From: a phage
Direction: 5' to 3' (one strand)
DNA: 64,000 bases
Sequence record: PQ724393.1
Of this stretch, positions 1 to 28,318 are shown piece after piece. Made by a program: the position numbers and the translations under genes. Position 1 is the first letter of the stretch; each line of letters opens with the position of its first letter. Below the pieces are notes generated by a model. It did no database searches, was not told the origin of the DNA, and was given only the letters and a program-made list of their open reading frames with translations.

Positions 1-811
1 GCGAGCCCATAGGGAACTTAATATAAACTACATCATGGCGAGTACGCATCCATGTGCCTTTAATATAAGCCGAATCCAATGGATAAACAATACCACCATA
101 AACGGCATAAAGTCCTGAACGTTCAAAATCTCTGTAACCGGTATCAGTTACAGCATAGTAGTCTTCGAATTCAGGGAAATAATCAACTTCGGCCCCATCA
201 ACATCACCGAGTCCAATGAACGGTCGCATGATATAACGAACTTCAGTTTCAAACTTACGGAAATCTTCTTCATCAACAGGAACCGTGATTTCTATACCGG
301 TTTTGTCACCTGGATTCATAGGTTCAACGAAAGTAGGTTTAATCTGAGGTCCATCACCATCCATATAAGCTACATAACCGCGAACTTCACCATTATGCCA
401 CGAGGTAATATTAAACGTTTCGGTATAACTGAACGGAGATTTTGAACCAAGGCCAAAGCCACCGATGAAATCGTTAGAAGCTGTTTTGGATGATGCGAAA
501 TAAGAGTTATACAAACCTGTTTCGTTTTCATCACCACGAATTTGGAAATCACTCATGCCTGGCCCGAAGTCACGGCATACAAAACGAGGGTCCAGTTTAC
601 CAGGAACCTGTACTTTCCAACGTTCTTTATTACCATTCAGAATATGAGCATCAATCATATTGGTAATTAGTTCACGAACTACAGCACGCACCTTATTACT
701 ATAAAGGTCTGATGAAAGAATTTTAAAGACCTTAGGCGAGGCCTGGATAGTAAAGCCTGTGGACTTAGCGCCATTACCAATGATTTGTTCTTTTTCGGTT
801 TCAATAATCAT
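1..811 (-). CDS. rIIA: rIIA protein, N-terminal part (gene continues beyond window start)
   Basis: Own translation from ATG at 811..809: [60 protein letters not shown]... closely matches recalled T4 rIIA N-terminus; frame open to window edge. Confidence 0.8.
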
Positions 812-818
812 ATTTTTC

Positions 819-1022
819 TCAATTCAGGTTACGTTTAAAAAGGTCTGCTACTTCAAGGAGCTCGTCCTTAGTAGCGATGTCGTTGAGTATTTTATATCTG
901 ATTTCTTTAAAGCGTTCTTTAAAATCCTCAGCTGCATTGATATCAAAAAATCGTTGGATTAACCGGAATTCTTTATGGACGGCTTTATCGAACAAATCAA
1001 TATTCACTTTAAAGTTTGTCAT
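819..1022 (-). CDS. small protein, rIIA.1-like by position
   Basis: 67-aa ORF; SD GAGGTAG 7 nt upstream of ATG; sits between rIIA and gene 39 region. Confidence 0.5.
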
Positions 1023-1332
1023 TTTTAACTACCTCATGTTGAACATATTCTCTGGTAGAACCGAGTTCAGCCAGAATTCTTCTCATAGAACCCATTGTAC
1101 TTTTGTGCTCTCTGTGGCGATACAATATCTCCAGAACCTTTTCCTGGACAACAGGAGAGAGCGCCTGGTTATCTTTAATCTTTAAGGCAATAGATTTTAC
1201 AGCCTTAAGATATTCTAGCCCCTTACCGCTTGTAATCACTACTCCTTCATCTTTACAGTTACGAATAGCGGTTTCCATAAAGGATAAAGCCAGGTTGTCA
1301 GTGTTCACTATACTGTTATCTTGCATAATCAT
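1009..1332 (-). CDS. hypothetical protein (107 aa)
   Basis: Track ORF 1009..1359 starts at GTG inside promoter; in-frame ATG at 1332 has SD GAGGTGA. Confidence 0.5.
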   Translation of the reverse strand: MIMQDNSIVNTDNLALSFMETAIRNCKDEGVVITSGKGLEYLKAVKSIALKIKDNQALSPVVQEKVLEILYRHREHKSTMGSMRRILAELGSTREYVQHEVVKNDKL

Positions 1333-1345
1333 ATTCTCACCTCTA

Positions 1346-1379
1346 GATAATCCTATCACAGTTTTGTTATGTTGTAAAC
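1346..1379 (-). promoter_or_regulatory. putative early sigma70-type promoter
   Basis: Coding strand GTTTAC -35, ~17-nt spacer, weak -10 (TAGGAT); upstream of ORF 1009..1332. Confidence 0.4.
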
Positions 1380-1380
1380 C

Positions 1381-1403
1381 CCGAAAAGGGCCTTGCGGCC
1401 CTT
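1381..1403 (-). terminator. rho-independent terminator
   Basis: Minus strand GGGCCGCAAGGCCC stem-loop followed by T-run. Confidence 0.6.
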
Positions 1404-1405
1404 AA

Positions 1406-1558
1406 TTATTCAATTTTGTAGACTTGTCCTCGAACTTGATAAAATTCGCCTTCCCAGGTTTCTACCATAATGGTCACATACTCTGCGAACAAAGGTCTCT
1501 TCTCGGCCCAGAGATATCCAAATTCACCGGTGGCTAGCGTTATCCAGTACTTTCTCAT
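1406..1558 (-). CDS. hypothetical small protein (50 aa)
   Basis: Internal ATG of track ORF 1406..1693 preceded by AGGAGA; longer form overlaps gene 39 end; followed by hairpin terminator. Confidence 0.35.
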   Translation of the reverse strand: MRKYWITLATGEFGYLWAEKRPLFAEYVTIMVETWEGEFYQVRGQVYKIE

Positions 1559-1601
1559 AAAGTCTCCTAATTGTATGGCACTCATGTACCATACATATTT
1601 A

Positions 1602-3419
1602 TTACGACATCCAGGCCTTACGGAGTTGAGGGTCGTTCCCGAGGAGCATTTCGAACTGTTCTTTCCAATCTTCAGGCAATTGAACCACATCAAATTTAGG
1701 GTCTTGAATCATTCGACGGTATTCAGCCTTCTCAAGAGAACCTAAACCTTTAATATATCGAATAGAATGTTTTGGTAGAGAGTCCTTGGCTTTGGTATAA
1801 CTAGGAACATCATAAAACCATTCCTGTTCTTTACCAATCTGAGCAATAATCACCGGAGTTTTACAGAATCGTACTCGGCCTTGTTCGAATAATTCAGGCC
1901 ATTGGCTAAAGAAGGCTAGCAATGACGGATAAATCGAGCCTGTACCATCCACATCGGCATCAGTCATAATAGCGATATTACGATAGTTAGTTTTATCTGC
2001 AGGTTCGCCAATAACCAGTCCAGTGATTGCACAGATATCAAACAATTCTTTGTTCTTCATGATATCAACTGCAGGCATACCCCAGGTATTCATAACCTTA
2101 CCACGCAATGGATAACCGCCTTGAAGGTCTTTATTACGTACTTCAATGAAAGGACCCATTGCTGAATCACCTTCAGTCAAGAACAGAGTTGTATCGGCAT
2201 CTTTACCATACATATTGGCTTTAATATGCTTATGGACCTTAGCTTTCAAAGCTTTCTTAGCGGCTTTTGTTTCTGCTGCTTTTTCGGCTGCTAATTTACG
2301 TGCTAAAGCAGCTTCGACGATAGGCATAATCAACCCATCGACCTTAAGAATCATCGATGCAATTTTCTTAGCATCAATTTGGATATGGCTACGAATCTCG
2401 CCAAACGGGGAGGTCAAACGCTCTTTAGTCTGGGAATCAAAACGCATATTACTCATATCACGAATGAACATTACCATCGTAAGGCATTCTTTAACACGAG
2501 CCTTAGTTACTTCAATTCCACGATATTTCTTTTTAATACCAGGCAGAAGGTGCTCACAAATGTCATCGAATACACATTCAACGTGGTGGCCACCATTCTT
2601 GGTATGGATATTATTTACATACGTCAGTTGACGGAACCCATCCGGAGAAGGAGTAAATGCCATCGAAACATTATCAGTTTCTTGGATTACAAAGTCATCA
2701 CCAAATTGCTTAGCATACTTTTTAAAGTTGCCATCTACTTTTTTACCATTAAAAGTAAATTGAATATCAGGATAAATTACGGCCAGTGTTTGAAGACGGT
2801 CTAATGTAATATCCAGATAAATTTGGGTCAGGCTATTTTCTTCGAAATGGTTAAAGTCTGGGGTGAATATAACCGAAGTACCCTTACCTTTAGATTTCTT
2901 AGTAGTCCAACCTTTGTTTTCCATTCCGTTAGAACAGTTAACAGTAATCTCATTCTCGCCATCAGAGGTGATGCCTGTGAACAAAACAGAGAAGATATTA
3001 GTTAAACTACTACCGACACCATTCATGCCACCTGTCTTACGCTCTGAGTCATCTCCAAAGTTACCACCGGCCTTTGGAATAGTCCATGCAGCTACAGGAC
3101 CCGGAATTTGTTCGCCATTTTGGTCAGTAACCATTGCTTGTGGAATACCACGGCCATTATCGGAAACTGAAACCTGATTATTCTTAATTCGGACATCAAT
3201 TTTGTTTGCGAATTTAAAATTAGTACGAATAGCTTCATCGACAGAGTTATCAATGATTTCGTCAATTAATTTAACCAGTCCAGGAACATAGTTCACCTGG
3301 GTAAAATTACCAAACAGGAATCGACCGTGAGCTTCATTAGCACTTGAGCCAATATACATCCCACTACGTTTTTTGATATGTTCAATGTCGGACAGTACTT
3401 TAATTTCATTCTTAATCAT
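1602..3419 (-). CDS. 39: DNA topoisomerase II large (ATPase) subunit, gp39, single 605-aa ORF
   Basis: 605 aa; GHKL/GyrB-like N-terminus MIKNEIKVLSDIEHIKKRSGMYIGS; T4 gp39 position after rIIA; length equals unsplit 39+60 form. Confidence 0.95.
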   Translation of the reverse strand: MIKNEIKVLSDIEHIKKRSGMYIGSSANEAHGRFLFGNFTQVNYVPGLVKLIDEIIDNSVDEAIRTNFKFANKIDVRIKNNQVSVSDNGRGIPQAMVTDQNGEQIPGPVAAWTIPKAGGNFGDDSERKTGGMNGVGSSLTNIFSVLFTGITSDGENEITVNCSNGMENKGWTTKKSKGKGTSVIFTPDFNHFEENSLTQIYLDITLDRLQTLAVIYPDIQFTFNGKKVDGNFKKYAKQFGDDFVIQETDNVSMAFTPSPDGFRQLTYVNNIHTKNGGHHVECVFDDICEHLLPGIKKKYRGIEVTKARVKECLTMVMFIRDMSNMRFDSQTKERLTSPFGEIRSHIQIDAKKIASMILKVDGLIMPIVEAALARKLAAEKAAETKAAKKALKAKVHKHIKANMYGKDADTTLFLTEGDSAMGPFIEVRNKDLQGGYPLRGKVMNTWGMPAVDIMKNKELFDICAITGLVIGEPADKTNYRNIAIMTDADVDGTGSIYPSLLAFFSQWPELFEQGRVRFCKTPVIIAQIGKEQEWFYDVPSYTKAKDSLPKHSIRYIKGLGSLEKAEYRRMIQDPKFDVVQLPEDWKEQFEMLLGNDPQLRKAWMS

Positions 3420-19311: not shown

Positions 19312-20485
19312 GGTCGCTCACAAAATTCATATTTTCTAAATCGTTTTCTATATCAGCGGCGCTTTGGGTATTTCCACCTAATTTAACAGCAACGTTCTTA
19401 GAGACACGAGAGTTAATAAGGTCGTTCACCGCATCGTCAACTTCTTTAATAGAATTAATTGCACCGAGCTTATACTTATTCTCGATTGCTTCACGGAACG
19501 GAGCATGTTTAAACAGCGGTCCCCAGAACTCGACACAATCGGTAGCTTTAGCACGCCATGATTTTTCTTCTTGAACCATTTCACCTGTGGTTTCGTCAAG
19601 GAATGCACGATTATACCAACCAGCTTTAGGTTTCACAACAAAGCCAATATCAGTAGCCATTTCAAGCAATCCACTGAATGGGTCGATACCACCTTCAAAG
19701 TTCACAGTAATTGGGAACGTTGATTTCTCTTTAACAGTACGAGATTTTTCGGCCTTCAGGGTGAAGTCATAACCAGTGAGCTCGGTGCCATCTTTAACCT
19801 GACGTTTAGAGATAAAGAATACGGTAGAAGCAGAGTACAGAATACCGGTACCGCCACCCATAATCTCTTTAGGATACATTCCACCAATTTCCATAGCCGT
19901 ATGGTTAATTGCTACACAAGGGATATCCTTGATGGTCAGATAAGGTGTTACGATACGGAACAGAGATTTCAGTGACTTAGCACGGGTCATATCACCTACA
20001 ACTTTCTCGTTCAAAGCATCTTCGGTTTCTTTCTTAGAAGCGGTGTTACCGATGGAGTCGATAAAGATAATAACCTTTTCACCACGAGTAATTTCTTCTA
20101 ATTGGTTGGTCATGTCAACCTTCAGTTGTTCAACTGACTGGATTGGCGTATGAACCACACGTTCCAGGTCAACACCCATTGAACGGAAATAAGATTCTGA
20201 AGCACCGAACTCAGAGTCATAGAACAAGCAAATTGCGTCTGGATATTTCTTCATATATGCCGCAACCATAGTTAATCCAAACAACGTTTTAAAGTGTTTA
20301 GACGGCGCAGCAAAGATTGTCAAACCTGATTGTAAGCCTGCATTCAACGCACCACCCAATGCAATATTAAGCATAGGAATACGAGTAGGAACTTCGTCAC
20401 GACCATTAAACAATTTAGATTTGGTCAGGTCGGCAGTCATTTTAGAAGTAGAAGCTTTAATCAAACGGGATTTTAAATCAGACAT
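19304..20485 (-). CDS. uvsX: UvsX RecA-like recombinase
   Basis: 393 aa; MSDLKSRLIKASTSK N-terminus and RecA core match recalled T4 UvsX. Confidence 0.93.
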   Translation of the reverse strand: MSDLKSRLIKASTSKMTADLTKSKLFNGRDEVPTRIPMLNIALGGALNAGLQSGLTIFAAPSKHFKTLFGLTMVAAYMKKYPDAICLFYDSEFGASESYFRSMGVDLERVVHTPIQSVEQLKVDMTNQLEEITRGEKVIIFIDSIGNTASKKETEDALNEKVVGDMTRAKSLKSLFRIVTPYLTIKDIPCVAINHTAMEIGGMYPKEIMGGGTGILYSASTVFFISKRQVKDGTELTGYDFTLKAEKSRTVKEKSTFPITVNFEGGIDPFSGLLEMATDIGFVVKPKAGWYNRAFLDETTGEMVQEEKSWRAKATDCVEFWGPLFKHAPFREAIENKYKLGAINSIKEVDDAVNDLINSRVSKNVAVKLGGNTQSAADIENDLENMNFVSDHD

Positions 20486-20537
20486 TATATTTTTCCATAG
20501 GCATCATTATATTTTACTCACGTTTTAAGATAGGGTA

Positions 20538-20546
20538 ATTATATCA
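20538..20546 (-). promoter_or_regulatory. putative extended -10 promoter upstream of uvsX
   Basis: Coding strand TGATATAAT about 50 nt upstream of uvsX ATG; no clear -35. Confidence 0.3.
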
Positions 20547-20562
20547 CTTCACATTTACAGCG

Positions 20563-21456
20563 TTAAAGGACCACGTCCTCATAACTTGGCATTTCGTGCC
20601 CAGAATGGATATGGGCACCGAAATAAATGAATTCAGCCAGACCAGGATGGAATACTAAACCTGGGTTCTCATGATAAATGATATGCGGTCTTGATTTCAG
20701 AATCTGATAATACTCAACCTTACTCGGTTTGAATTTAACAATCTCTACATCAGGACGATAGTCTTCACGCTTAAATGAATCATTAGGGTTGGTGATATAA
20801 AGACGAGCACCTTCAGCCGCAGCTTGGTCTACAACTCTTTCGAATTGATAGCACTTATCCGAAATACGGAATGGATGGAAAATACCATCAATTTTAATAG
20901 GCGCTAGACCTTCAGAGTAACGCTCAATTACTGCAGGATTAATTACCTTTTGGTCTACAAAAATCTTATCAGAGGATGCACCTCGTGACACCAGGACGTC
21001 TTTCTGGCATTGATTCAGGACTGTAGTATAAAGTGAACGTTCAACTGAAGCCACATCAATATCAATGAACTCGTCGATATAATAACGAGGAACTTCAGGG
21101 TCCATTGTGATATTAAAGTTGAATTGTACAGTATGAGCACCATCATAACCTGTGATATCGGTTACCAGTCCTGAGCAATCATAGTATTCGATTAGTGAAT
21201 CGACTACAAACTCATTTTCAGACCAGAAATGTTTACGGGTTTCATAAGCATTTTCTTTATACCAAAGTGGTACGAAATTCAGTTCTGGGAATAATTCAAT
21301 GCATTCTTTGATATCGCTCGAATTTCTAGGATAAGCCAGATAATCACCTGGACGAGCACGATTTAAATGGAGTTGAAAATTGCCGTCCTTAAGGACGGCA
21401 TATTCACCTGTTTCGTAACTACGCATACTGAAAATAGGAACGATAAACAAACTCAT
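20563..21456 (-). CDS. hypothetical protein (297 aa) in beta-glucosyltransferase slot
   Basis: No similarity to recalled T4 beta-gt; ATGA-coupled to gene 42 stop. Confidence 0.6.
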   Translation of the reverse strand: MSLFIVPIFSMRSYETGEYAVLKDGNFQLHLNRARPGDYLAYPRNSSDIKECIELFPELNFVPLWYKENAYETRKHFWSENEFVVDSLIEYYDCSGLVTDITGYDGAHTVQFNFNITMDPEVPRYYIDEFIDIDVASVERSLYTTVLNQCQKDVLVSRGASSDKIFVDQKVINPAVIERYSEGLAPIKIDGIFHPFRISDKCYQFERVVDQAAAEGARLYITNPNDSFKREDYRPDVEIVKFKPSKVEYYQILKSRPHIIYHENPGLVFHPGLAEFIYFGAHIHSGHEMPSYEDVVL

Positions 21457-22151
21457 TTCAGGAAACCTCGGACGTAGTCAAAATCACGTTCAAACACGTG
21501 TGCACTTACCATGGTGTGGGAATACGTACCTAAACCAACACCACACTGTTCAGCAATAAATGCCATCAGTTTACCCTGCAGATAGAAATCCAGCTGCATA
21601 ACAACAGCGCAGTTTTGTGAACGCATATGGGTGTGTGCATACAAACGCCCGTCACGAATATAATACGTTACCGAATCGGTGCAAGGGTATTCTAAGGATT
21701 CGTCAGAATCAAGGAGGGCTTGGTCTTGTTCTTGGAGAATCTGGAACACAACTCTTCGCGAGTTGGCCTTTTCTTTAAGCTCTTTAAGTAGGGCTGGGAG
21801 TTGGGCCGCAATTCGAGGTCCATAGAAAGTGTTGAAGTTTGCAGGCAATACGTCACTTTTCGGCTTATCAATGAACTTAGCAACATTAGGGTATTCCTTA
21901 AATGCTTCGGCAGCGTCAGTACCACCAGAAATCATAAATTTCCAAAAGGATTCGGCATATTCATAACTGATACGATTGATACGTGGGTCGGTGAATTTAT
22001 AGGTGCTGACATCCAGTACTTCTATAGAAGCAGAACCAATTTCATAACAACGTCCGATACGAGAATCAACTGCAAACTGTGGAGCTTCCAGGATTTCTTC
22101 GTTCATTTGTTTAAATGCATTTTCAAAACTAACAGCGGTAATGTGTTTCAT
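21453..22151 (-). CDS. 42: dCMP hydroxymethylase-like enzyme (thymidylate synthase fold), gp42 position
   Basis: 232 aa; EYPCTDSVTYYIRD...HMRSQN resembles T4 gp42 FMCTNTVQYLIRD...MRSND; divergent. Confidence 0.7.
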   Translation of the reverse strand: MKHITAVSFENAFKQMNEEILEAPQFAVDSRIGRCYEIGSASIEVLDVSTYKFTDPRINRISYEYAESFWKFMISGGTDAAEAFKEYPNVAKFIDKPKSDVLPANFNTFYGPRIAAQLPALLKELKEKANSRRVVFQILQEQDQALLDSDESLEYPCTDSVTYYIRDGRLYAHTHMRSQNCAVVMQLDFYLQGKLMAFIAEQCGVGLGTYSHTMVSAHVFERDFDYVRGFLK

Positions 22152-22684
22152 TTATTCACCTTATTTTCAATATATTCGTTCAGACGTTTTAATTCTACCA
22201 TATCAACATTAAGCAAATTATTATGGCCGTCATGATTTAAGATTTTAAACACGTTTTCAAAACATGTTTCGTATTGCTGGATAGTTAGGTTGAACTCATC
22301 TTTGGTTAATTTAATAAGGTCATCTTCGAAGTCTTCGTCTAATGGGTTGCGAGTTAAAATAACTTCGATAACGTTAAATTCAGATTTAAACCCTTTCCAA
22401 TCTTCCAGTTCTACATAAGGGTCCATTTCACCACGAAGGAATCCCGAGTAAACAATATTACTAGGATACCCACGGTCTAAGATGTAGACAAAATTAGGGT
22501 CTAAAAACTTATACAGAGTTTCAACTAAAGCCTTGTCATTATCAGTCCCTAATGAAATGCATTTGCCATTAATCTTTTTAGGGAAATCAATAAGACGATA
22601 TTTCTTATCAGATAAAAGTGATTCAATTAAAGTAGACTTCCCGGAATTATCCGGGCCGTCGATAACAATGATTTTTGGTTTCAC
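22148..22684 (-). CDS. P-loop kinase (thymidylate/dNMP-kinase-like)
   Basis: 178 aa; Walker A IIVIDGPDNSGKST, DRGY motif; GTG start overlapping upstream stop. Confidence 0.6.
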   Translation of the reverse strand: MKPKIIVIDGPDNSGKSTLIESLLSDKKYRLIDFPKKINGKCISLGTDNDKALVETLYKFLDPNFVYILDRGYPSNIVYSGFLRGEMDPYVELEDWKGFKSEFNVIEVILTRNPLDEDFEDDLIKLTKDEFNLTIQQYETCFENVFKILNHDGHNNLLNVDMVELKRLNEYIENKVNK

Positions 22685-23064
22685 GGATGATATGCCTTAT
22701 AACTATCAAGAGTTCCTTCACGAACCAATTCTTTAAAGTGGTCTGGACGGATTGCTCGGTCATCGATGATAAAAGTATAACTCGGCTTGTGTGTAAGCAA
22801 ATTGTGATATTTCAATCCAATTTTTTCAAGGTTCTTAACCAATGCAGGAACTACTTCAACCAAGATTCGACCTGGGCCACATGAAGTCATGCCACGGGCA
22901 GTGAATAATGTAATCTCGTACCCTTCATCATAAAGCTTATTAATCATGGACACCATTTCGGTGTCCGGTTTAAAGTTCTCATAATCACGGTCATGGTTCC
23001 AAATCGTGATTGTGTTATCGATATCAAAACATAAATGTGGCTTATTTTCTACTCGATGCGACAT
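22681..23064 (-). CDS. HAD-superfamily phosphatase
   Basis: 127 aa; motif I CFDIDNTIT (DxDxT); start reset to ATG 23064 (TAATG overlap). Confidence 0.6.
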   Translation of the reverse strand: MSHRVENKPHLCFDIDNTITIWNHDRDYENFKPDTEMVSMINKLYDEGYEITLFTARGMTSCGPGRILVEVVPALVKNLEKIGLKYHNLLTHKPSYTFIIDDRAIRPDHFKELVREGTLDSYKAYHP

Positions 23065-24737
23065 TAAATTTTCTTCCATTGTTTGTGGAGTTCAGTAGAA
23101 CCTGTAGGTTTATATTTTACACCAGTTTCCTGGTCAAGCAAAACCCACTTATCAGGACAACGAGTAATAATTTGAGCCGTGATAGGGTCACGAACTTCAT
23201 CGACAAATTCACCAGTAATAAGCTTACGCTTACGAGGATGCCGCTTCAGCAGCACACTCAGTTGGTACAAACCGTTATAATAAGCACCCAGAGCTTTCAG
23301 AGGGTTATTCTTAAAGTAACCTGCCAGAGCCATCCAAATAACAGCAATCCAGAGCTTGTGCTTAAATGTGCACATAGGAATATCGTCTAAAGGCATAACC
23401 TTTTCAATATCAACGAATACACGAGTTCCATTACGAGTTAATCCACCCCATAGAGGGTCTGAGTTAAATTTGTCATAGCCATCGATAGAATAAAGCACCT
23501 TAGCTTCATCATAAATCGCAGGGCCTTTAGAACTATTACCGAAATAACCACGTGGGTCGATGATTTTAATATCACCTTCGTCCGACAGCATAATATTACT
23601 GTAGTGCGGGTCGCCATGAATAAGTTGGTACGGCTCTTTATGTTCAGACAGAATTTCTAGTGCGTGGCGGAGAAGTTTTTCAGGGTCGCCTACTTTGAAA
23701 TCGTTAACATGGGTAATGCCTTGTGGAGCAAAGCCTTCAATCAATCCAGCAATAGAAGCATTACGAATAAGGACCTTGTCCAATACTTCTTTCTTAACAT
23801 CAGAATACCATTGCTCATCGGACGGATTATCGATAGTTCCACCAAATGAACGTAATGCACTAATGACCTTATAAACCATGAGGACTTTAGTTTCTTTAGA
23901 CATAAACCGGTAGGCATCTGCCATGGTGCGACCAAAGATACGTTCCATTTTAATGAATTCGCCTGGAGCAAAGTCTACAATGCTCGGAACAAATTCAGAA
24001 TCAATAGAATTATACCAATTGATTTCTTTAGATTGGATTTCTTTACCTAATTCGTTGGTAGGTACTTTAATAGCCAGATTCTCAGTGAACTCTAATTTAT
24101 TAAATTCACGGTTAATTTCAGAATCTTCATGGGCCCTAGCCAGTTTCAATTTGTCACCGACATCAACCACAAAGTCCAGCTTACGTTCAGTCAAATGGAC
24201 CATCGAATCCAGGTTGTCTGCAAGGTCTTCGCCATAATTAGAACGGTCGAAACCTGTCCAATTAGCCACCTGATACAAACCAACCACACCACCGCCAGTA
24301 CCAATTTCACGCAAGTACGGTTCTTCAAATGTAAAACGACAGTCGGTCCCATAGGTATAACAGTAGTCGTTATCCCACTCAACTTTATGACCTTCAGGAA
24401 TAATATCACACCAGTTAAACAAGACATTATGCCCGATGATATCTTCGGCAATGCAATCGATAGCATGAGCTGAACCGTTGGCCACATCTACGTTACGAAT
24501 AGTGAATTTAGGCTTATCACTGGTAATCATGTTAATGGATTTAATGTAACCCTTAACGAGGTCATTAAATTTGCTGTGAATAACCAGAATAATTTCATCT
24601 GATTGGTTACTATACAAATCATACAAATGTTTTAGTACTGTATGCTGTTTGTAGTTAACCAATACCTTCGGGATTTCGTTAGTAATTGGATACAACCGTG
24701 AGCCAAGACCCGCGCCTAAAATAACAACCTTTTTCAT
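23064..24737 (-). CDS. bifunctional sugar-1-phosphate nucleotidyltransferase / kinase
   Basis: 557 aa; N-terminus VVILGAGLGSRLYPIT (GxGxRL of RmlA/GlmU-type); C-terminus LIHGDPHYSNIMLSDEGDIKIIDPRGYF (HGD..N...D APH/choline-kinase-like); SD GAGGAA before ATG 24737. Confidence 0.7.
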   Translation of the reverse strand: MKKVVILGAGLGSRLYPITNEIPKVLVNYKQHTVLKHLYDLYSNQSDEIILVIHSKFNDLVKGYIKSINMITSDKPKFTIRNVDVANGSAHAIDCIAEDIIGHNVLFNWCDIIPEGHKVEWDNDYCYTYGTDCRFTFEEPYLREIGTGGGVVGLYQVANWTGFDRSNYGEDLADNLDSMVHLTERKLDFVVDVGDKLKLARAHEDSEINREFNKLEFTENLAIKVPTNELGKEIQSKEINWYNSIDSEFVPSIVDFAPGEFIKMERIFGRTMADAYRFMSKETKVLMVYKVISALRSFGGTIDNPSDEQWYSDVKKEVLDKVLIRNASIAGLIEGFAPQGITHVNDFKVGDPEKLLRHALEILSEHKEPYQLIHGDPHYSNIMLSDEGDIKIIDPRGYFGNSSKGPAIYDEAKVLYSIDGYDKFNSDPLWGGLTRNGTRVFVDIEKVMPLDDIPMCTFKHKLWIAVIWMALAGYFKNNPLKALGAYYNGLYQLSVLLKRHPRKRKLITGEFVDEVRDPITAQIITRCPDKWVLLDQETGVKYKPTGSTELHKQWKKI

Positions 24738-24797
24738 TATCTGTTCCTCAAGTGAATGTAGGTACATTATACACTATTTTTAATAAATTGGTATTGC

Positions 24798-25298
24798 TTA
24801 AATCTTATCTTTACCGATTTCAATACACCGTTCTATTGCCGCCGGTACTTTGGTCTTGAGCTTATTGATTTGTTTCTTATAATCACGGGCTTTATCGAAG
24901 CTCTCGGTTTCGAGCATTTCGTAATAACGAGCCTCGTGGATGGAAATCTGTAGATTGATATGGTTTACGCACATCGCATACAGTTTCTGCTTTTTGTACA
25001 AATCATCTTGACGCTTCATTTCTGCCTGGTGTTTGGCTAGTACCGCTTCACGCTTAGACTCTTGTTCACGTTGGAATTCGATTTCCCTTTGAGCATATTT
25101 TGCACAGTTATTACCGCATTGATTATTAGCTCGGGTATACACAAGCCCAGAACCAGCACGGAATTTCATTTCACCGTCATATTGTTTCTGTTCAGCTGCG
25201 ATACGAGCTTTACCAACTTCATCAGCCGAAACTGCATCGCCATATTGGACCGCGCAACCTGATAGGAGCATACTCATTGCGATAATTAACTTTTTCAT
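24798..25298 (-). CDS. putative lipoprotein (166 aa)
   Basis: Signal peptide with lipobox LLSGC; SD AAGGGAA. Confidence 0.6.
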   Translation of the reverse strand: MKKLIIAMSMLLSGCAVQYGDAVSADEVGKARIAAEQKQYDGEMKFRAGSGLVYTRANNQCGNNCAKYAQREIEFQREQESKREAVLAKHQAEMKRQDDLYKKQKLYAMCVNHINLQISIHEARYYEMLETESFDKARDYKKQINKLKTKVPAAIERCIEIGKDKI

Positions 25299-25307
25299 GG
25301 AATTCCC

Positions 25308-25544
25308 TTACTGTTTAACAATAATGATTTGTGCATTTGATTTACGTTCAGCGACGATGGCCCAGATTAAAGCCACTACCCAACCAATCATCGTCCAACC
25401 CAACAGGAGGTTTAGGAAGAAAATTCCGACATTACTACGAGTGCCTCGCAGAAGAGCCAGAATCCATGGTAAAAAGTAACCGATGAACATAATAACCAGA
25501 GAACCGAATCCTAAAACACCAGCACTAACGATTAAAGCTTCCAT
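25308..25544 (-). CDS. two-TM membrane protein, Imm-like (superinfection immunity position)
   Basis: 78 aa, two hydrophobic helices; immediately before gene 43 as T4 imm; promoter and SD GAGGAAA. Confidence 0.55.
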   Translation of the reverse strand: MEALIVSAGVLGFGSLVIMFIGYFLPWILALLRGTRSNVGIFFLNLLLGWTMIGWVVALIWAIVAERKSNAQIIIVKQ

Positions 25545-25574
25545 TGTAATTTCCTCATGTAGTTGATAGGAAGG

Positions 25575-25604
25575 ATACTACCACGTTCCTTGTGGTATGT
25601 AAAC
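25575..25604 (-). promoter_or_regulatory. early promoter upstream of imm-like gene
   Basis: GTTTAC-18-TAGTAT. Confidence 0.5.
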
Positions 25605-25606
25605 AC

Positions 25607-28318
25607 TTAAAAGTCGAACATATCAAATAATGTTGCTTTTTTCTCGTAGTCGATTTTAGCAGACTCAGTAAAACCAGTCAGAGGCTTGATAAAGGTCTTT
25701 TGGAACAGTACGTTGTAGTCCATCCAACGGAGGACTTGGTCACGAATCTGAATCGGAAGTTCAATACCTGACGGCCATGCCATACAAGCTTCACCGAACG
25801 GGTTGCCTTCTTTAAGCGGCAGTACATATACCTTTTCACCATCAACGATACGAGGCATAGTCAAATCACCTGCAGAAGCACGCATGTAAGCTAAGCAACC
25901 TTTGATGTGGTACGGGCATTTAGAACCAGGGAATCCGCCTTCATTATATTTCTCGATGTTGTTAGCACTGGATACTGCTGCAATGCTTACATAGTTGAGT
26001 TCGTTAAATTCCTTATTAAACTGTTTGAAATATTCTTGCAAAGATGCCTCACCTTCCTGAAGCATACGACGGATACATTCCTTCAGAGCTTTCTGAACTG
26101 CTTTAGGTGTACTTGATTTCTGAGTTTCGAGGCCCATGATTTTCAAGTGTGGTTCGGCATAACGAGTACCTTCCATGTCCCAAACGTTCAGTGCATAACG
26201 TTTCTTACCTGTCCAGAATCCACCAAGACCTTTAGAACCAAGTGGAGGACCTGCGATAGCTTCTCGGTCCATGAACATCAAGTGCTGTTTGTTGTTCATG
26301 TACTCGCACATCTCACGGAAGCCTGCATCAATAGCCGGTTCCATACGTTCACGTGCAAATTTATCTAAGAAGTCAACCCAGTGGTTAGTATCACGGAATT
26401 TGTCTTCGCCTACTTTATTGATGATTGCATCAGCCTTAACATAAATGGAGTCAGTATCACCATAGAGCACGAACTTCTGGTTTTCAGTCTTGCACACACC
26501 ATTCAGGTATTCGTTAACCTTACGTTCAATCCATTGGAGGGCCATTTGACCAAACAGTGTGATTGCAGTTGCGTTCCTGAGGTCGTAATAACGGAACCAT
26601 ACGTTACCAAGTGCACCATAAAGGGAGTTGATAAGCAACTTACGGTTAATCTGAGCAGTCATACCTGCAACTTCGGTACGTTCAGCTCTGAACAACATTT
26701 CTCTTAAAGAAGGTGCTGACAGCGTTTTAATCTTGGCTTTGATTTCGTCAGAGAAGTCAAAACGATAATCGATATCCAGTGGACTATCAGCCGAGAGATT
26801 AGGATTTTCTAATGCTTCTTTAATTAACTCACCATTACGTTGAGCTGCAAGCATATAACCTTTATGTTCTTTACGTTGTAAGAACACCTTAGTGATTTCT
26901 GTAGGAATAACACCATCGCGGTCTTTATAGTACATCATGCCGTTAGGAGAGCAACTGTAGACGTCGCTAGGACGCGGAGCTGTTCCGGCAATATATTCAT
27001 GTATCGGTGCGTTAGCGAATGTCCCTGCGATGGTCTCTGGGCTTATATTCACTTGTCGAATGATACTCGGGTACAGAGATGTAAGGTCGAAACTCATTAC
27101 ATATTTGTAAGCGTTAGGAATCGGTTCCTTAACGAAAGCACCAGGATAAGGTTGAACCACGTGTGAACGAGCTTGTGGAATTACCTTGCCTTGTTCTTTA
27201 AGGCTATTAAAGATAATAGCGTCCCAAGTCTTAATTGGACTAAACACCGACTGAATCTGCATCTTGGCATAATAACCCATGTCCAAACTCAGAAGAATGA
27301 ACTGACGCTTCATATCAATCTGCACTACACGATATACGTCGATAATGTTATAGGAAATATATCGTTGGTGGTTCGTCTCACGTAACTTAGAGATTGGACC
27401 ATCATATTTCAACTTACCCACTTTCAATTCATATTCAGAAACATAATCCAGAGAATAAGAAGGCTGGTTGGTGAAGCTGAATTTTTTATAGAGGTCGATA
27501 TAATCCAGAACAGAGATACCGAACAATGTAATGATTTCACGAGCACCGTACATGTTCTCAATAACTTTAACACGAGTTTTACGATGTGGGCTTAATCGCT
27601 TAGCAGTGTTCTCACCGAACAGATTTTTCAGACGGTTATAAACGTACGGTACGTCAAACGACTCAACGTTCCATCCAGTCAAAATCACAGGAGTTTTCTG
27701 TTGCCAGAAATTCAAGTACTCAAGCATCATTTCTTCTTCAGAATTAAACGGAAGATAAACGATTTTGTCAATGATTTCCTGTGGAACTTCGTCACCACCT
27801 TCGTCTTGGAGTTTCTCAGCGATTTTAATCGACCACTCTTCAACAGTACCATAAGGCGAAACTAAAAGGTCGAATACATAGAATTTATCGTCAATCGAGT
27901 CGTAGTGGGTAATGGCATCGATAGGATGTTTAGCCTGAGCTGGTTCAGGGAATCCATCAGGAGATGTTACCTCGATGTCGAAGTTAGCAATACGAATCTT
28001 AGAAGAATCATATTTGATTTCTTTACGATAGGTATCAGACAAATAGGCTAATTTATAGTCGTCCATACCCAGGGCTTCGAGACCCATATCATCCATACGT
28101 TTCATCCATTGGGATGCATCACGCATAGAATCGAATTCTTTCTTAACACAACCCTTACCATAGATATCAATGTATTTTACGGCTTGCTCTGGGTTAGCAT
28201 GCATAAACATTGTGGGCTTGTATGGAACTTCACGACTACGTTCGTTACCATTTTTATCGATGTAACGTTCGAGAATATTATCACCGATTTGTTCGACTGT
28301 CAAATAGAATTCTTGCAT
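25607..28318 (-). CDS. 43: DNA polymerase gp43 (family B, with 3'-5' exonuclease)
   Basis: Start reset to MQEFYLTVEQ... (ATG 28318, SD AAAGGA); exo motif FDIEV; YGDTDS polymerase motif; strong similarity to recalled RB69/T4 gp43. Confidence 0.95.
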   Translation of the reverse strand: MQEFYLTVEQIGDNILERYIDKNGNERSREVPYKPTMFMHANPEQAVKYIDIYGKGCVKKEFDSMRDASQWMKRMDDMGLEALGMDDYKLAYLSDTYRKEIKYDSSKIRIANFDIEVTSPDGFPEPAQAKHPIDAITHYDSIDDKFYVFDLLVSPYGTVEEWSIKIAEKLQDEGGDEVPQEIIDKIVYLPFNSEEEMMLEYLNFWQQKTPVILTGWNVESFDVPYVYNRLKNLFGENTAKRLSPHRKTRVKVIENMYGAREIITLFGISVLDYIDLYKKFSFTNQPSYSLDYVSEYELKVGKLKYDGPISKLRETNHQRYISYNIIDVYRVVQIDMKRQFILLSLDMGYYAKMQIQSVFSPIKTWDAIIFNSLKEQGKVIPQARSHVVQPYPGAFVKEPIPNAYKYVMSFDLTSLYPSIIRQVNISPETIAGTFANAPIHEYIAGTAPRPSDVYSCSPNGMMYYKDRDGVIPTEITKVFLQRKEHKGYMLAAQRNGELIKEALENPNLSADSPLDIDYRFDFSDEIKAKIKTLSAPSLREMLFRAERTEVAGMTAQINRKLLINSLYGALGNVWFRYYDLRNATAITLFGQMALQWIERKVNEYLNGVCKTENQKFVLYGDTDSIYVKADAIINKVGEDKFRDTNHWVDFLDKFARERMEPAIDAGFREMCEYMNNKQHLMFMDREAIAGPPLGSKGLGGFWTGKKRYALNVWDMEGTRYAEPHLKIMGLETQKSSTPKAVQKALKECIRRMLQEGEASLQEYFKQFNKEFNELNYVSIAAVSSANNIEKYNEGGFPGSKCPYHIKGCLAYMRASAGDLTMPRIVDGEKVYVLPLKEGNPFGEACMAWPSGIELPIQIRDQVLRWMDYNVLFQKTFIKPLTGFTESAKIDYEKKATLFDMFDF

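Follow-up and report, generated by a model that had tools for sequence, protein, structure and literature searches.

A predicted AfhE-type kinase and nucleotidyltransferase fusion in a reduced cytosine arabinosylation cluster of a Dhakavirus genome

Gene organization of the locus

We analysed a 64,000-nucleotide stretch of phage DNA from sequence record PQ724393.1 (hereafter, the window) and focused on a gene of its minus strand, located at 23064..24737, which joins a sugar-1-phosphate nucleotidyltransferase and an APH-like kinase in one polypeptide. The window is Dhakavirus DNA, derived from a JS98/JS10-like T-even phage. The 5.1 kb surrounding the fusion gene are 96% identical to JS10, JS98, fDHCT2, dhaeg, and others, and IME08, also among the Dhakavirus matches, displayed 94.4% nucleotide identity to the fusion-gene region. 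Phage KIT01 encodes a 'hypothetical protein' with 99.8% identity to the fusion protein. Around the fusion, the minus strand encodes the gp41 helicase, gp40, UvsX, the DNA polymerase gp43, RegA, the clamp loader, and the sliding clamp.

The open reading frame spans 23064..24767 (minus strand), and encodes 567 amino acids from its first in-frame ATG at 24767. Translation starts instead from the ATG at 24737, giving a product of 557 amino acids plus the stop codon, because a Shine-Dalgarno-like GAGGA (24745..24749, minus strand), read directly from the sequence, lies 7 nucleotides upstream of it, homologs begin with MKK, and the JS10 gene is annotated alike. Furthermore, the ATG at 24767 falls within a TATAAT-like hexamer. 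The coordinates given in an earlier reading of the window made without database searches (the sequence-only reading) were exact.

The fusion gene heads a series of five genes that lie on the same strand, overlap one another by 4 to 16 nucleotides, and are translationally coupled. It is followed by genes for a HAD phosphatase (22681..23079), whose first 16 nucleotides lie within the 3′ end of the fusion gene, a P-loop kinase (22148..22684), which shares a 4-nucleotide overlap with each neighbour, a thymidylate-synthase homolog (21453..22151), and a putative DNA arabinosyltransferase (20563..21456), all on the minus strand. The last gene is followed by uvsX, while upstream of the fusion gene are imm and a gene for a predicted lipoprotein of 166 amino acids. 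A promoter and terminator scan of positions 20400-25700 yielded 17 promoter-like sites against 15.7 expected, none of which convincingly drives the operon.

Domains and catalytic residues of the fusion protein

Three parts make up the fusion protein, all of them encoded on the minus strand: an N-terminal sugar-1-phosphate nucleotidyltransferase domain (approximately residues 1-205; 24123..24737), a C-terminal APH/choline-kinase-like domain (approximately residues 206-500; 23238..24122), and a C-terminal tail of short beta strands (approximately residues 501-557; 23067..23237). The first domain displayed G8-x-G10-x-G12-x-R14-L15, P23-K24, D111, and VDVGD(192-195)xxK198, and it combines the GxGxRLxPxT...K signature, the Rossmann-like fold, and the metal-binding aspartates of the family to which RmlA, GalU, MurU, and LicC belong. 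The second displayed K224, E238, H374-G375-D376-x4-N381, and D394-P-R-G, which correspond to the N-lobe Lys/Glu pair, the HGDxxxxN loop, and the downstream metal-binding aspartate of APH/choline kinases. Among these residues, K224 is the ATP-binding lysine, HGD-x4-N the catalytic loop, and D394 the metal-binding aspartate.

Both domains were recovered by Pfam above the curated cutoffs. NTP_transferase (PF00483) matched residues 13-110 of the 567-amino acid open reading frame (E 3e-8, 34 bits against a cutoff of 21.2) and APH (PF01636) matched residues 356-427 of the same frame (E 8e-6, 26.2 bits against a cutoff of 23.2). In addition, the protein matched phrog_4098, a family of 'unknown function', from end to end (E 6.5e-269). 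We gathered 177 homologs of the fusion and aligned 60 of them, with identities down to 30%. Residues G10, R14, L15, P23, K24, D111, D192, G194, D195, and K198 of the nucleotidyltransferase were invariant in this alignment, as were K224, E238, G375, D376, N381, D394, P395, R396, and G397 of the kinase, and H374 was kept in at least 90% of the sequences.

The AlphaFold2 model built from the same alignment was confident, with a predicted local distance difference test (pLDDT) of 94.3 and a predicted template modelling score (pTM) of 0.90. In fold searches, the kinase domain fit APH and choline-kinase folds only, and neither Pfam nor these searches provided a GHMP match for it. A search of the PDB returned no AfhE structure or close homolog. 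The tail, modelled as strands between residues 503 and 556 (pLDDT 82-92), is confined to T4-like homologs; distant homologs cover 87-89% of the query. The sequence-only reading had recognized a nucleotidyltransferase and an APH-like kinase in one chain from two motifs. Both motifs are present, and the profile searches, the conservation of catalytic residues, and the model all bear this architecture out.

Orthology to the cytosine arabinosylation cluster

In phage RB69 and Acinetobacter phage DLP3, cytosine is replaced by 5-hydroxycytosine bearing one to three arabinofuranoses, and the genes between gp43 and uvsX have been called the 'cytosine arabinosylation cluster' (PMC13326640). In that work, RB69 gp48 was shown experimentally to make 5-hydroxy-dCMP (5hodCMP), RB69 gp46:47 was proposed as the first arabinosyltransferase, and RB69 gp52:53 and DLP3 gp82, which consist of an N-terminal nucleotidyltransferase and a C-terminal kinase, were equated with AfhE of phage HY126. 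Dhakaviruses were included among the genera with a syntenic cluster, by comparative genomics only. The enzyme has an earlier history as well. In 2018, a sequencing error was shown to have divided a single RB69 gene of 561 amino acids into ORF053c and ORF052c, IME08 gp43 was named among its full-length homologs, and a role in UDP-arabinose synthesis was proposed (PMC6024577; also Table 2 of PMC8056088). The fusion is thus already known, from the 2018 prediction, which included a Dhakavirus homolog (PMC6024577), and from the biochemistry of an ortholog published in 2026. The sole peculiarity of the locus described here is its reduced cluster.

We compared the RB69 and HY126 loci with the window gene by gene, and each of the five genes matched its HY126 counterpart over the full length. 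The operon lies between gp43/imm and uvsX, which is the same locus in both phages. The fusion protein displayed 43% identity (E 5e-144) to a HY126 protein of 562 amino acids (XAN60479.1), with 557 amino acids set against 562, 42% identity to RB69 ORF053c/052c, and 44% identity to TH1_060 of phage Thanatos, a protein essential for propagation of that phage (PMC12838424). The adjacent HAD protein (132 amino acids, DxDxT motif 'DIDNT') is 63% identical (E 1e-64) to a HY126 protein of 128 amino acids encoded directly downstream of the HY126 fusion. It also matched the capsule-biosynthesis phosphatase family TIGR01689 of NCBIfam (E 6e-15) and HAD-IIIA.

The thymidylate-synthase homolog (232 amino acids; Pfam Thymidylat_synt, E 3.6e-13) is 80% identical over 231 amino acids to RB69 gp48, and 80% identical to its HY126 counterpart. 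We predict that it is a 5-hydroxy-dCMP synthase because of this identity to gp48, and not because of the register of the published D169N signature of such enzymes. Ungapped comparison of approximately residues 176-190 (HMRSQNCAVVMQLDF) with E. coli ThyA gives RSQN...D, i.e., D169N and N177D, whereas BLAST against ThyA places a 2-residue gap there and shifts the register off the signature. The putative DNA arabinosyltransferase 1 (297 amino acids) had no Pfam match, and is 66% identical (E 9e-149) to a HY126 protein of 299 amino acids that corresponds to RB69 gp46:47; it also matched phrog_3891 (E 9e-158). This was the only glycosyltransferase of the pathway that we found.

The P-loop kinase (178 amino acids) displayed 38% identity (E 2e-35) to the ORF045c-type protein of HY126 and RB69, a match to phrog_761, 'thymidylate kinase' (E 5.5e-40), and weak matches to TMK and CMK. 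A gp1-type dNMP kinase already phosphorylates 5-hydroxy-dCMP (PMC13326640). The sequence-only reading had assigned the neighbouring HAD-like (22681-23079) and P-loop kinase (22148-22684) genes to a small metabolic module. Both genes are real and the HAD phosphatase does belong to such a module, while the P-loop protein resembles thymidylate and nucleotide kinases and is probably a nucleotide kinase and not a sugar kinase. No link had been drawn to the thymidylate-synthase homolog and glycosyltransferase genes, two and three genes downstream.

A predicted route to arabinosylated 5-hydroxycytosine

A gene with this domain composition and these intact catalytic residues, at the head of a translationally coupled operon of five genes orthologous to the arabinosylation cluster, is probably the Dhakavirus ortholog of AfhE (RB69 gp52:53, DLP3 gp82), supplying activated sugar for DNA hypermodification. 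Its predicted activities are those of a D-arabinose-5-phosphate 1-kinase and a UDP-D-arabinofuranose pyrophosphorylase. The locus displays a two-domain chain with full-length homology to AfhE-type proteins, the catalytic residues, an adjoining HAD gene, and a cluster that includes a predicted 5-hydroxy-dCMP synthase and a putative DNA arabinosyltransferase. What it lacks among the features of AfhE systems is an accompanying phage arabinose-5-phosphate isomerase (SIS domain).

According to the summary of the work of He et al. given in PMC13326640, the kinase of HY126 AfhE phosphorylates D-arabinose-5-phosphate at C1, yielding the 1,5-bisphosphate. AfhF, an Mg-dependent HAD phosphatase, then strips one phosphate from this intermediate, and the N-terminal domain of AfhE makes the UDP-arabinofuranose used for 5-hydroxycytosine glycosylation (PMC13326640 summary). 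The sequence-only reading had proposed that one polypeptide converts a free sugar into a sugar-1-phosphate and next into an NDP-sugar, in the manner of salvage enzymes. Its kinase-then-pyrophosphorylase logic survives. As summarised in PMC13326640, however, the starting compound is D-arabinose-5-phosphate and not a free sugar, an AfhF-type HAD phosphatase acts between the two activities so that the steps are not consecutive, and the product arabinosylates 5-hydroxycytosine in phage DNA, a purpose of hypermodification that the idea of salvage had missed.

We propose the following mechanism for the Dhakavirus locus. D-arabinose-5-phosphate would be derived from the host, presumably from KdsD and GutQ, which make this compound for Kdo synthesis in E. 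coli. By homology to the published biochemistry, the C-terminal APH-like kinase would use ATP to convert it into arabinofuranose-1,5-bisphosphate, and the HAD phosphatase encoded downstream is predicted to remove the 5-phosphate, leaving arabinofuranose-1-phosphate, a role taken from PMC13326640. The N-terminal nucleotidyltransferase would then combine this product with UTP, releasing UDP-arabinofuranose and pyrophosphate. In parallel, the thymidylate-synthase homolog would produce 5-hydroxy-dCMP, as suggested by its identity to a tested enzyme, and this nucleotide would be phosphorylated and enter the DNA in place of dC. Finally, the single glycosyltransferase of the cluster would place arabinose on the 5-hydroxyl in DNA. 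Because only one transferase is present, mono-arabinosylated 5-hydroxycytosine is the likely product, and it would guard the genome against restriction and Cas nucleases.

Several points weigh against this assignment. The phage isomerase encoded beside the fusion in RB69, HY126, DLP3, and 92A1 is absent from this phage, and the fusion protein shares no more than 43% identity with the characterised enzyme. That XAN60479.1 is AfhE is itself deduced from its domain architecture and from where its gene lies, flanked by those of the isomerase and the HAD protein, as the HY126 GenBank record carries no Afh names. The order of steps comes second-hand, through the summary in PMC13326640, and Table 1 of that paper conflicts with its own text by putting the phosphatase first and the kinase on free arabinose. 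Purified TH1_060 failed to act as a pyrophosphorylase on xylose-1-phosphate, whichever NTP was supplied (PMC12838424), a result that is uninformative for arabinose. The literature that we searched contained no enzyme assay or DNA analysis of a Dhakavirus.

The reduced cluster and the identity of the sugar

Neither the window nor the rest of JS10 contains a homolog of the RB69 isomerase (ORF055c), of the U32-like ORF050c, or of the second transferase gp3: at E<=10 and E<=1, tblastn gave nothing above noise. In RB69, gp3 lies between rIIA.1 and the topoisomerase gene. No homolog of it occurs at 1-3419 of the window, and JS10 displays only an unannotated gap of 590 bp at this place (positions 2436-3025 of JS10 locus L008). 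Absence of the isomerase is not exclusive to Dhakaviruses. Approximately 368 phage records contain the fusion against 276 that contain the isomerase, which is also missing from the Klebsiella-type (80% identity), Providencia-type (71% identity), and Thanatos clusters. Thanatos DNA carries a pentose on hydroxy-cytosine (PMC12838424), taken as mono-arabinose in PMC13326640; since its cluster has no isomerase, the phage isomerase is dispensable. It is an accessory and not a defining component of these clusters. Either host KdsD and GutQ, which by established E. coli metabolism are the obvious candidates, supply the arabinose-5-phosphate, or the substrate differs.

The latter explanation retains the architecture and the role in DNA glycosylation, and has the fusion activate another pentose, for instance ribose-5-phosphate by way of ribose-1,5-bisphosphate and ribose-1-phosphate. 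In its favour are the lack of an SIS/isomerase homolog in the window and the rest of JS10, and an identity to the HY126 enzyme of only 43%. When set against the consensus of 24 other T4-like homologs, the Dhakavirus-like clade, which includes the Klebsiella and Providencia types, also displayed fixed substitutions, two of them in the catalytic loop (HGDP-H378-Y379-SN, where the other 24 have N-F). The substitutions number only 11, however, most of them are conservative, and positions 378 and 379 vary in distant homologs too. At most, these differences are a weak indication that the substrate has changed. Thanatos obtains its pentose, read as mono-arabinose, from an equally isomerase-free cluster, and the glycosyltransferase that would accept the donor is 66% identical to that of HY126. 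All hosts of these phages, moreover, make arabinose-5-phosphate for Kdo, through KdsD and GutQ. We consider another pentose unlikely. There is only a slim chance that the stripped-down Dhakavirus pathway and its divergent enzyme (HGDPHYSN loop) lead to an undescribed modification, such as ribofuranosyl- or another pentosyl-5-hydroxycytosine.

Less probable still is a route through free sugar, in which the HAD enzyme makes free arabinose (or the cell supplies the sugar) and the fusion performs two consecutive steps, as in AmgK/MurU or fucokinase/pyrophosphorylase. Table 1 of PMC13326640 words the functions of the RB69 and DLP3 proteins in this way ('dephosphorylates Araf5p to Ara', 'phosphorylates Ara to Araf1p'), and the closest structural relatives of the kinase act on non-phosphorylated choline, glucosamine, maltose, and aminoglycosides. 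Against it, the text of that paper, in summarising He et al., describes AfhE as an arabinose-5-phosphate kinase yielding the 1,5-bisphosphate and AfhF as acting on that intermediate, and the nearest named relatives of the HAD enzyme are bisphosphate phosphatases and capsule phosphatases.

A role outside DNA, as a LicC/LicA-like phosphocholine-activating enzyme or a capsule or lipopolysaccharide enzyme that alters the host surface, is suggested by labels such as 'capsule biosynthesis protein', 'GlmU', and 'capsular polysaccharide' in several phage records, and it is already disfavoured to the point of being highly improbable: the gene lies within a block of replication genes and is translationally coupled with those for a glycosyltransferase and for a thymidylate-synthase homolog that modifies cytosine, its orthologs act in a pathway of DNA arabinosylation that has experimental support, the protein shares no more than 10-15% identity with LicC and LicA, and distant relatives are linked or fused to arabinose-5-phosphate isomerase.

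Further fusions and linkages of the enzyme

Those distant relatives provide a second line of evidence for arabinose activation by the Dhakavirus enzyme. Two metagenomic proteins, P0077 (922 amino acids) and P0091 (946 amino acids; locus L009, 14-2854), combine HAD, SIS, nucleotidyltransferase, and kinase parts in a single chain. The kinase part had no Pfam match in either protein, and was recognised by alignment to our query at 89% query coverage. Judging from this composition, the chain would contain the whole route from ribulose-5-phosphate to NDP-arabinose. Both proteins come from AT-rich metagenomic DNA, with genes for a sulfotransferase and a metallophosphatase as neighbours.

Looser associations point in the same direction. 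On a 315-kb contig (GCA_013565635.1), an SIS gene of 220 amino acids lies directly upstream of a fusion homolog with 32% identity (locus L010, 7297-9665), and in cyanophage S-SRM01 an SIS gene adjoins the fusion homolog (195190-197180). A bacterial protein that joins the enzyme to an SIS isomerase-like domain had been described in the 2018 study of RB69 (PMC6024577). Collectively, the SIS and HAD fusions and linkages that we found tie the enzyme to arabinose-5-phosphate isomerase and phosphatase independently of the literature on T4-like phages. The homolog of the 315-kb contig sits among genes for a UvrD helicase, gyrase/topoisomerase, and Fapy-glycosylase, and the contig looks like a large virus within the assembly of another organism.

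Comparison with known systems

The Dhakavirus protein resembles AfhE, RB69 gp52:53, DLP3 gp82, and Thanatos TH1_060 in length, domain order, short tail, and catalytic motifs, with 42-47% identity over the full length. The loci are also alike, being placed between the DNA polymerase gene and uvsX and including HAD, thymidylate-synthase homolog, glycosyltransferase, and TMK-like kinase partners. The Dhakavirus cluster differs from AfhE systems in lacking the isomerase, the U32-like gene, and a second transferase of the RB69 gp3 type. In addition, its TMK-like gene lies between those of the HAD protein and the thymidylate-synthase homolog, and not beside uvsX as in RB69 and HY126.

Resemblance to other sugar-activating systems is more remote. 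AmgK and MurU, the anomeric sugar kinase and MurNAc-1-phosphate uridylyltransferase of MurNAc recycling in Pseudomonas, are normally two proteins with approximately 16% identity to the fusion; they act on a free amino sugar with no phosphatase step, and their product goes to peptidoglycan rather than to DNA. LicA and LicC, the choline kinase and CTP:phosphocholine cytidylyltransferase of Streptococcus pneumoniae, are encoded by separate genes, use choline and CTP, and have no link to DNA modification. Meanwhile, L-fucokinase/GDP-fucose pyrophosphorylase (FKP) does unite an anomeric sugar kinase and an NDP-sugar pyrophosphorylase in one polypeptide, and the sequence-only reading had invoked it for this reason. 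The comparison is one of analogy and not of homology. FKP carries a GHMP kinase, whereas the kinase of the fusion is APH/protein-kinase-like with no GHMP match, and FKP begins with a free sugar and needs no phosphatase.

Implications for phage biology and annotation

Arabinosylated 5-hydroxycytosine shields the genomes of T4-like phages from restriction enzymes and CRISPR nucleases. The modification bears on phage engineering, on sequencing, and on how phages are selected for therapeutic use; Dhakaviruses are frequent candidates in coliphage therapy. Our analysis reveals no new principle. What it describes is a known machinery in reduced form, which would depend on the host for arabinose-5-phosphate.

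The more immediate value concerns annotation, as the GenBank and RefSeq labels of the operon genes could now be corrected. In public records, the fusion is labelled 'hypothetical', 'capsule biosynthesis protein', 'GlmU', or 'mannose-1-phosphate guanyltransferase'. The HAD phosphatase is mislabelled 'phosphoheptose isomerase' (RefSeq, phrog_1238), and the P-loop protein is labelled 'thymidylate kinase'.

Additional observations

Related clusters encode a Peptidase_U32-family protein (E approximately 1e-10), located at 9785-10945 of locus L011, 9826-10992 of L012, 11428-12564 of L013, and 9120-10289 of L002, the RB69 locus. Two of these clusters also have a gene for a chorismate mutase (CM_2), beside or shortly downstream of the U32-like gene (L012, 11224-11610; L013, 12561-12818). 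RB69 ORF049c was considered as a further chorismate mutase and rejected, having no Pfam match. Prephenate is the product of chorismate mutase. The U32 proteins TrhP and RlhA use prephenate to make 5-hydroxyuridine (ho5U) in tRNA and 5-hydroxycytidine (ho5C) in rRNA, respectively (PMC6599085, PMC5727448). Judging from the pairing of the two genes, these related phages may have a second way of making 5-hydroxycytosine that needs no oxygen; U32, prephenate, and chorismate are not mentioned in PMC13326640. Neither a U32-like nor a chorismate mutase gene is present in the window or in JS10.

The predicted lipoprotein of 166 amino acids mentioned above (24798-25298, minus strand) is encoded between imm and the modification operon, at the place where RB69 has its isomerase gene. 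It carries the lipoprotein signal MKKLIIAMSMLLSGC and belongs to phrog_1754, a family of unknown function. This protein may be another superinfection-exclusion or envelope protein.

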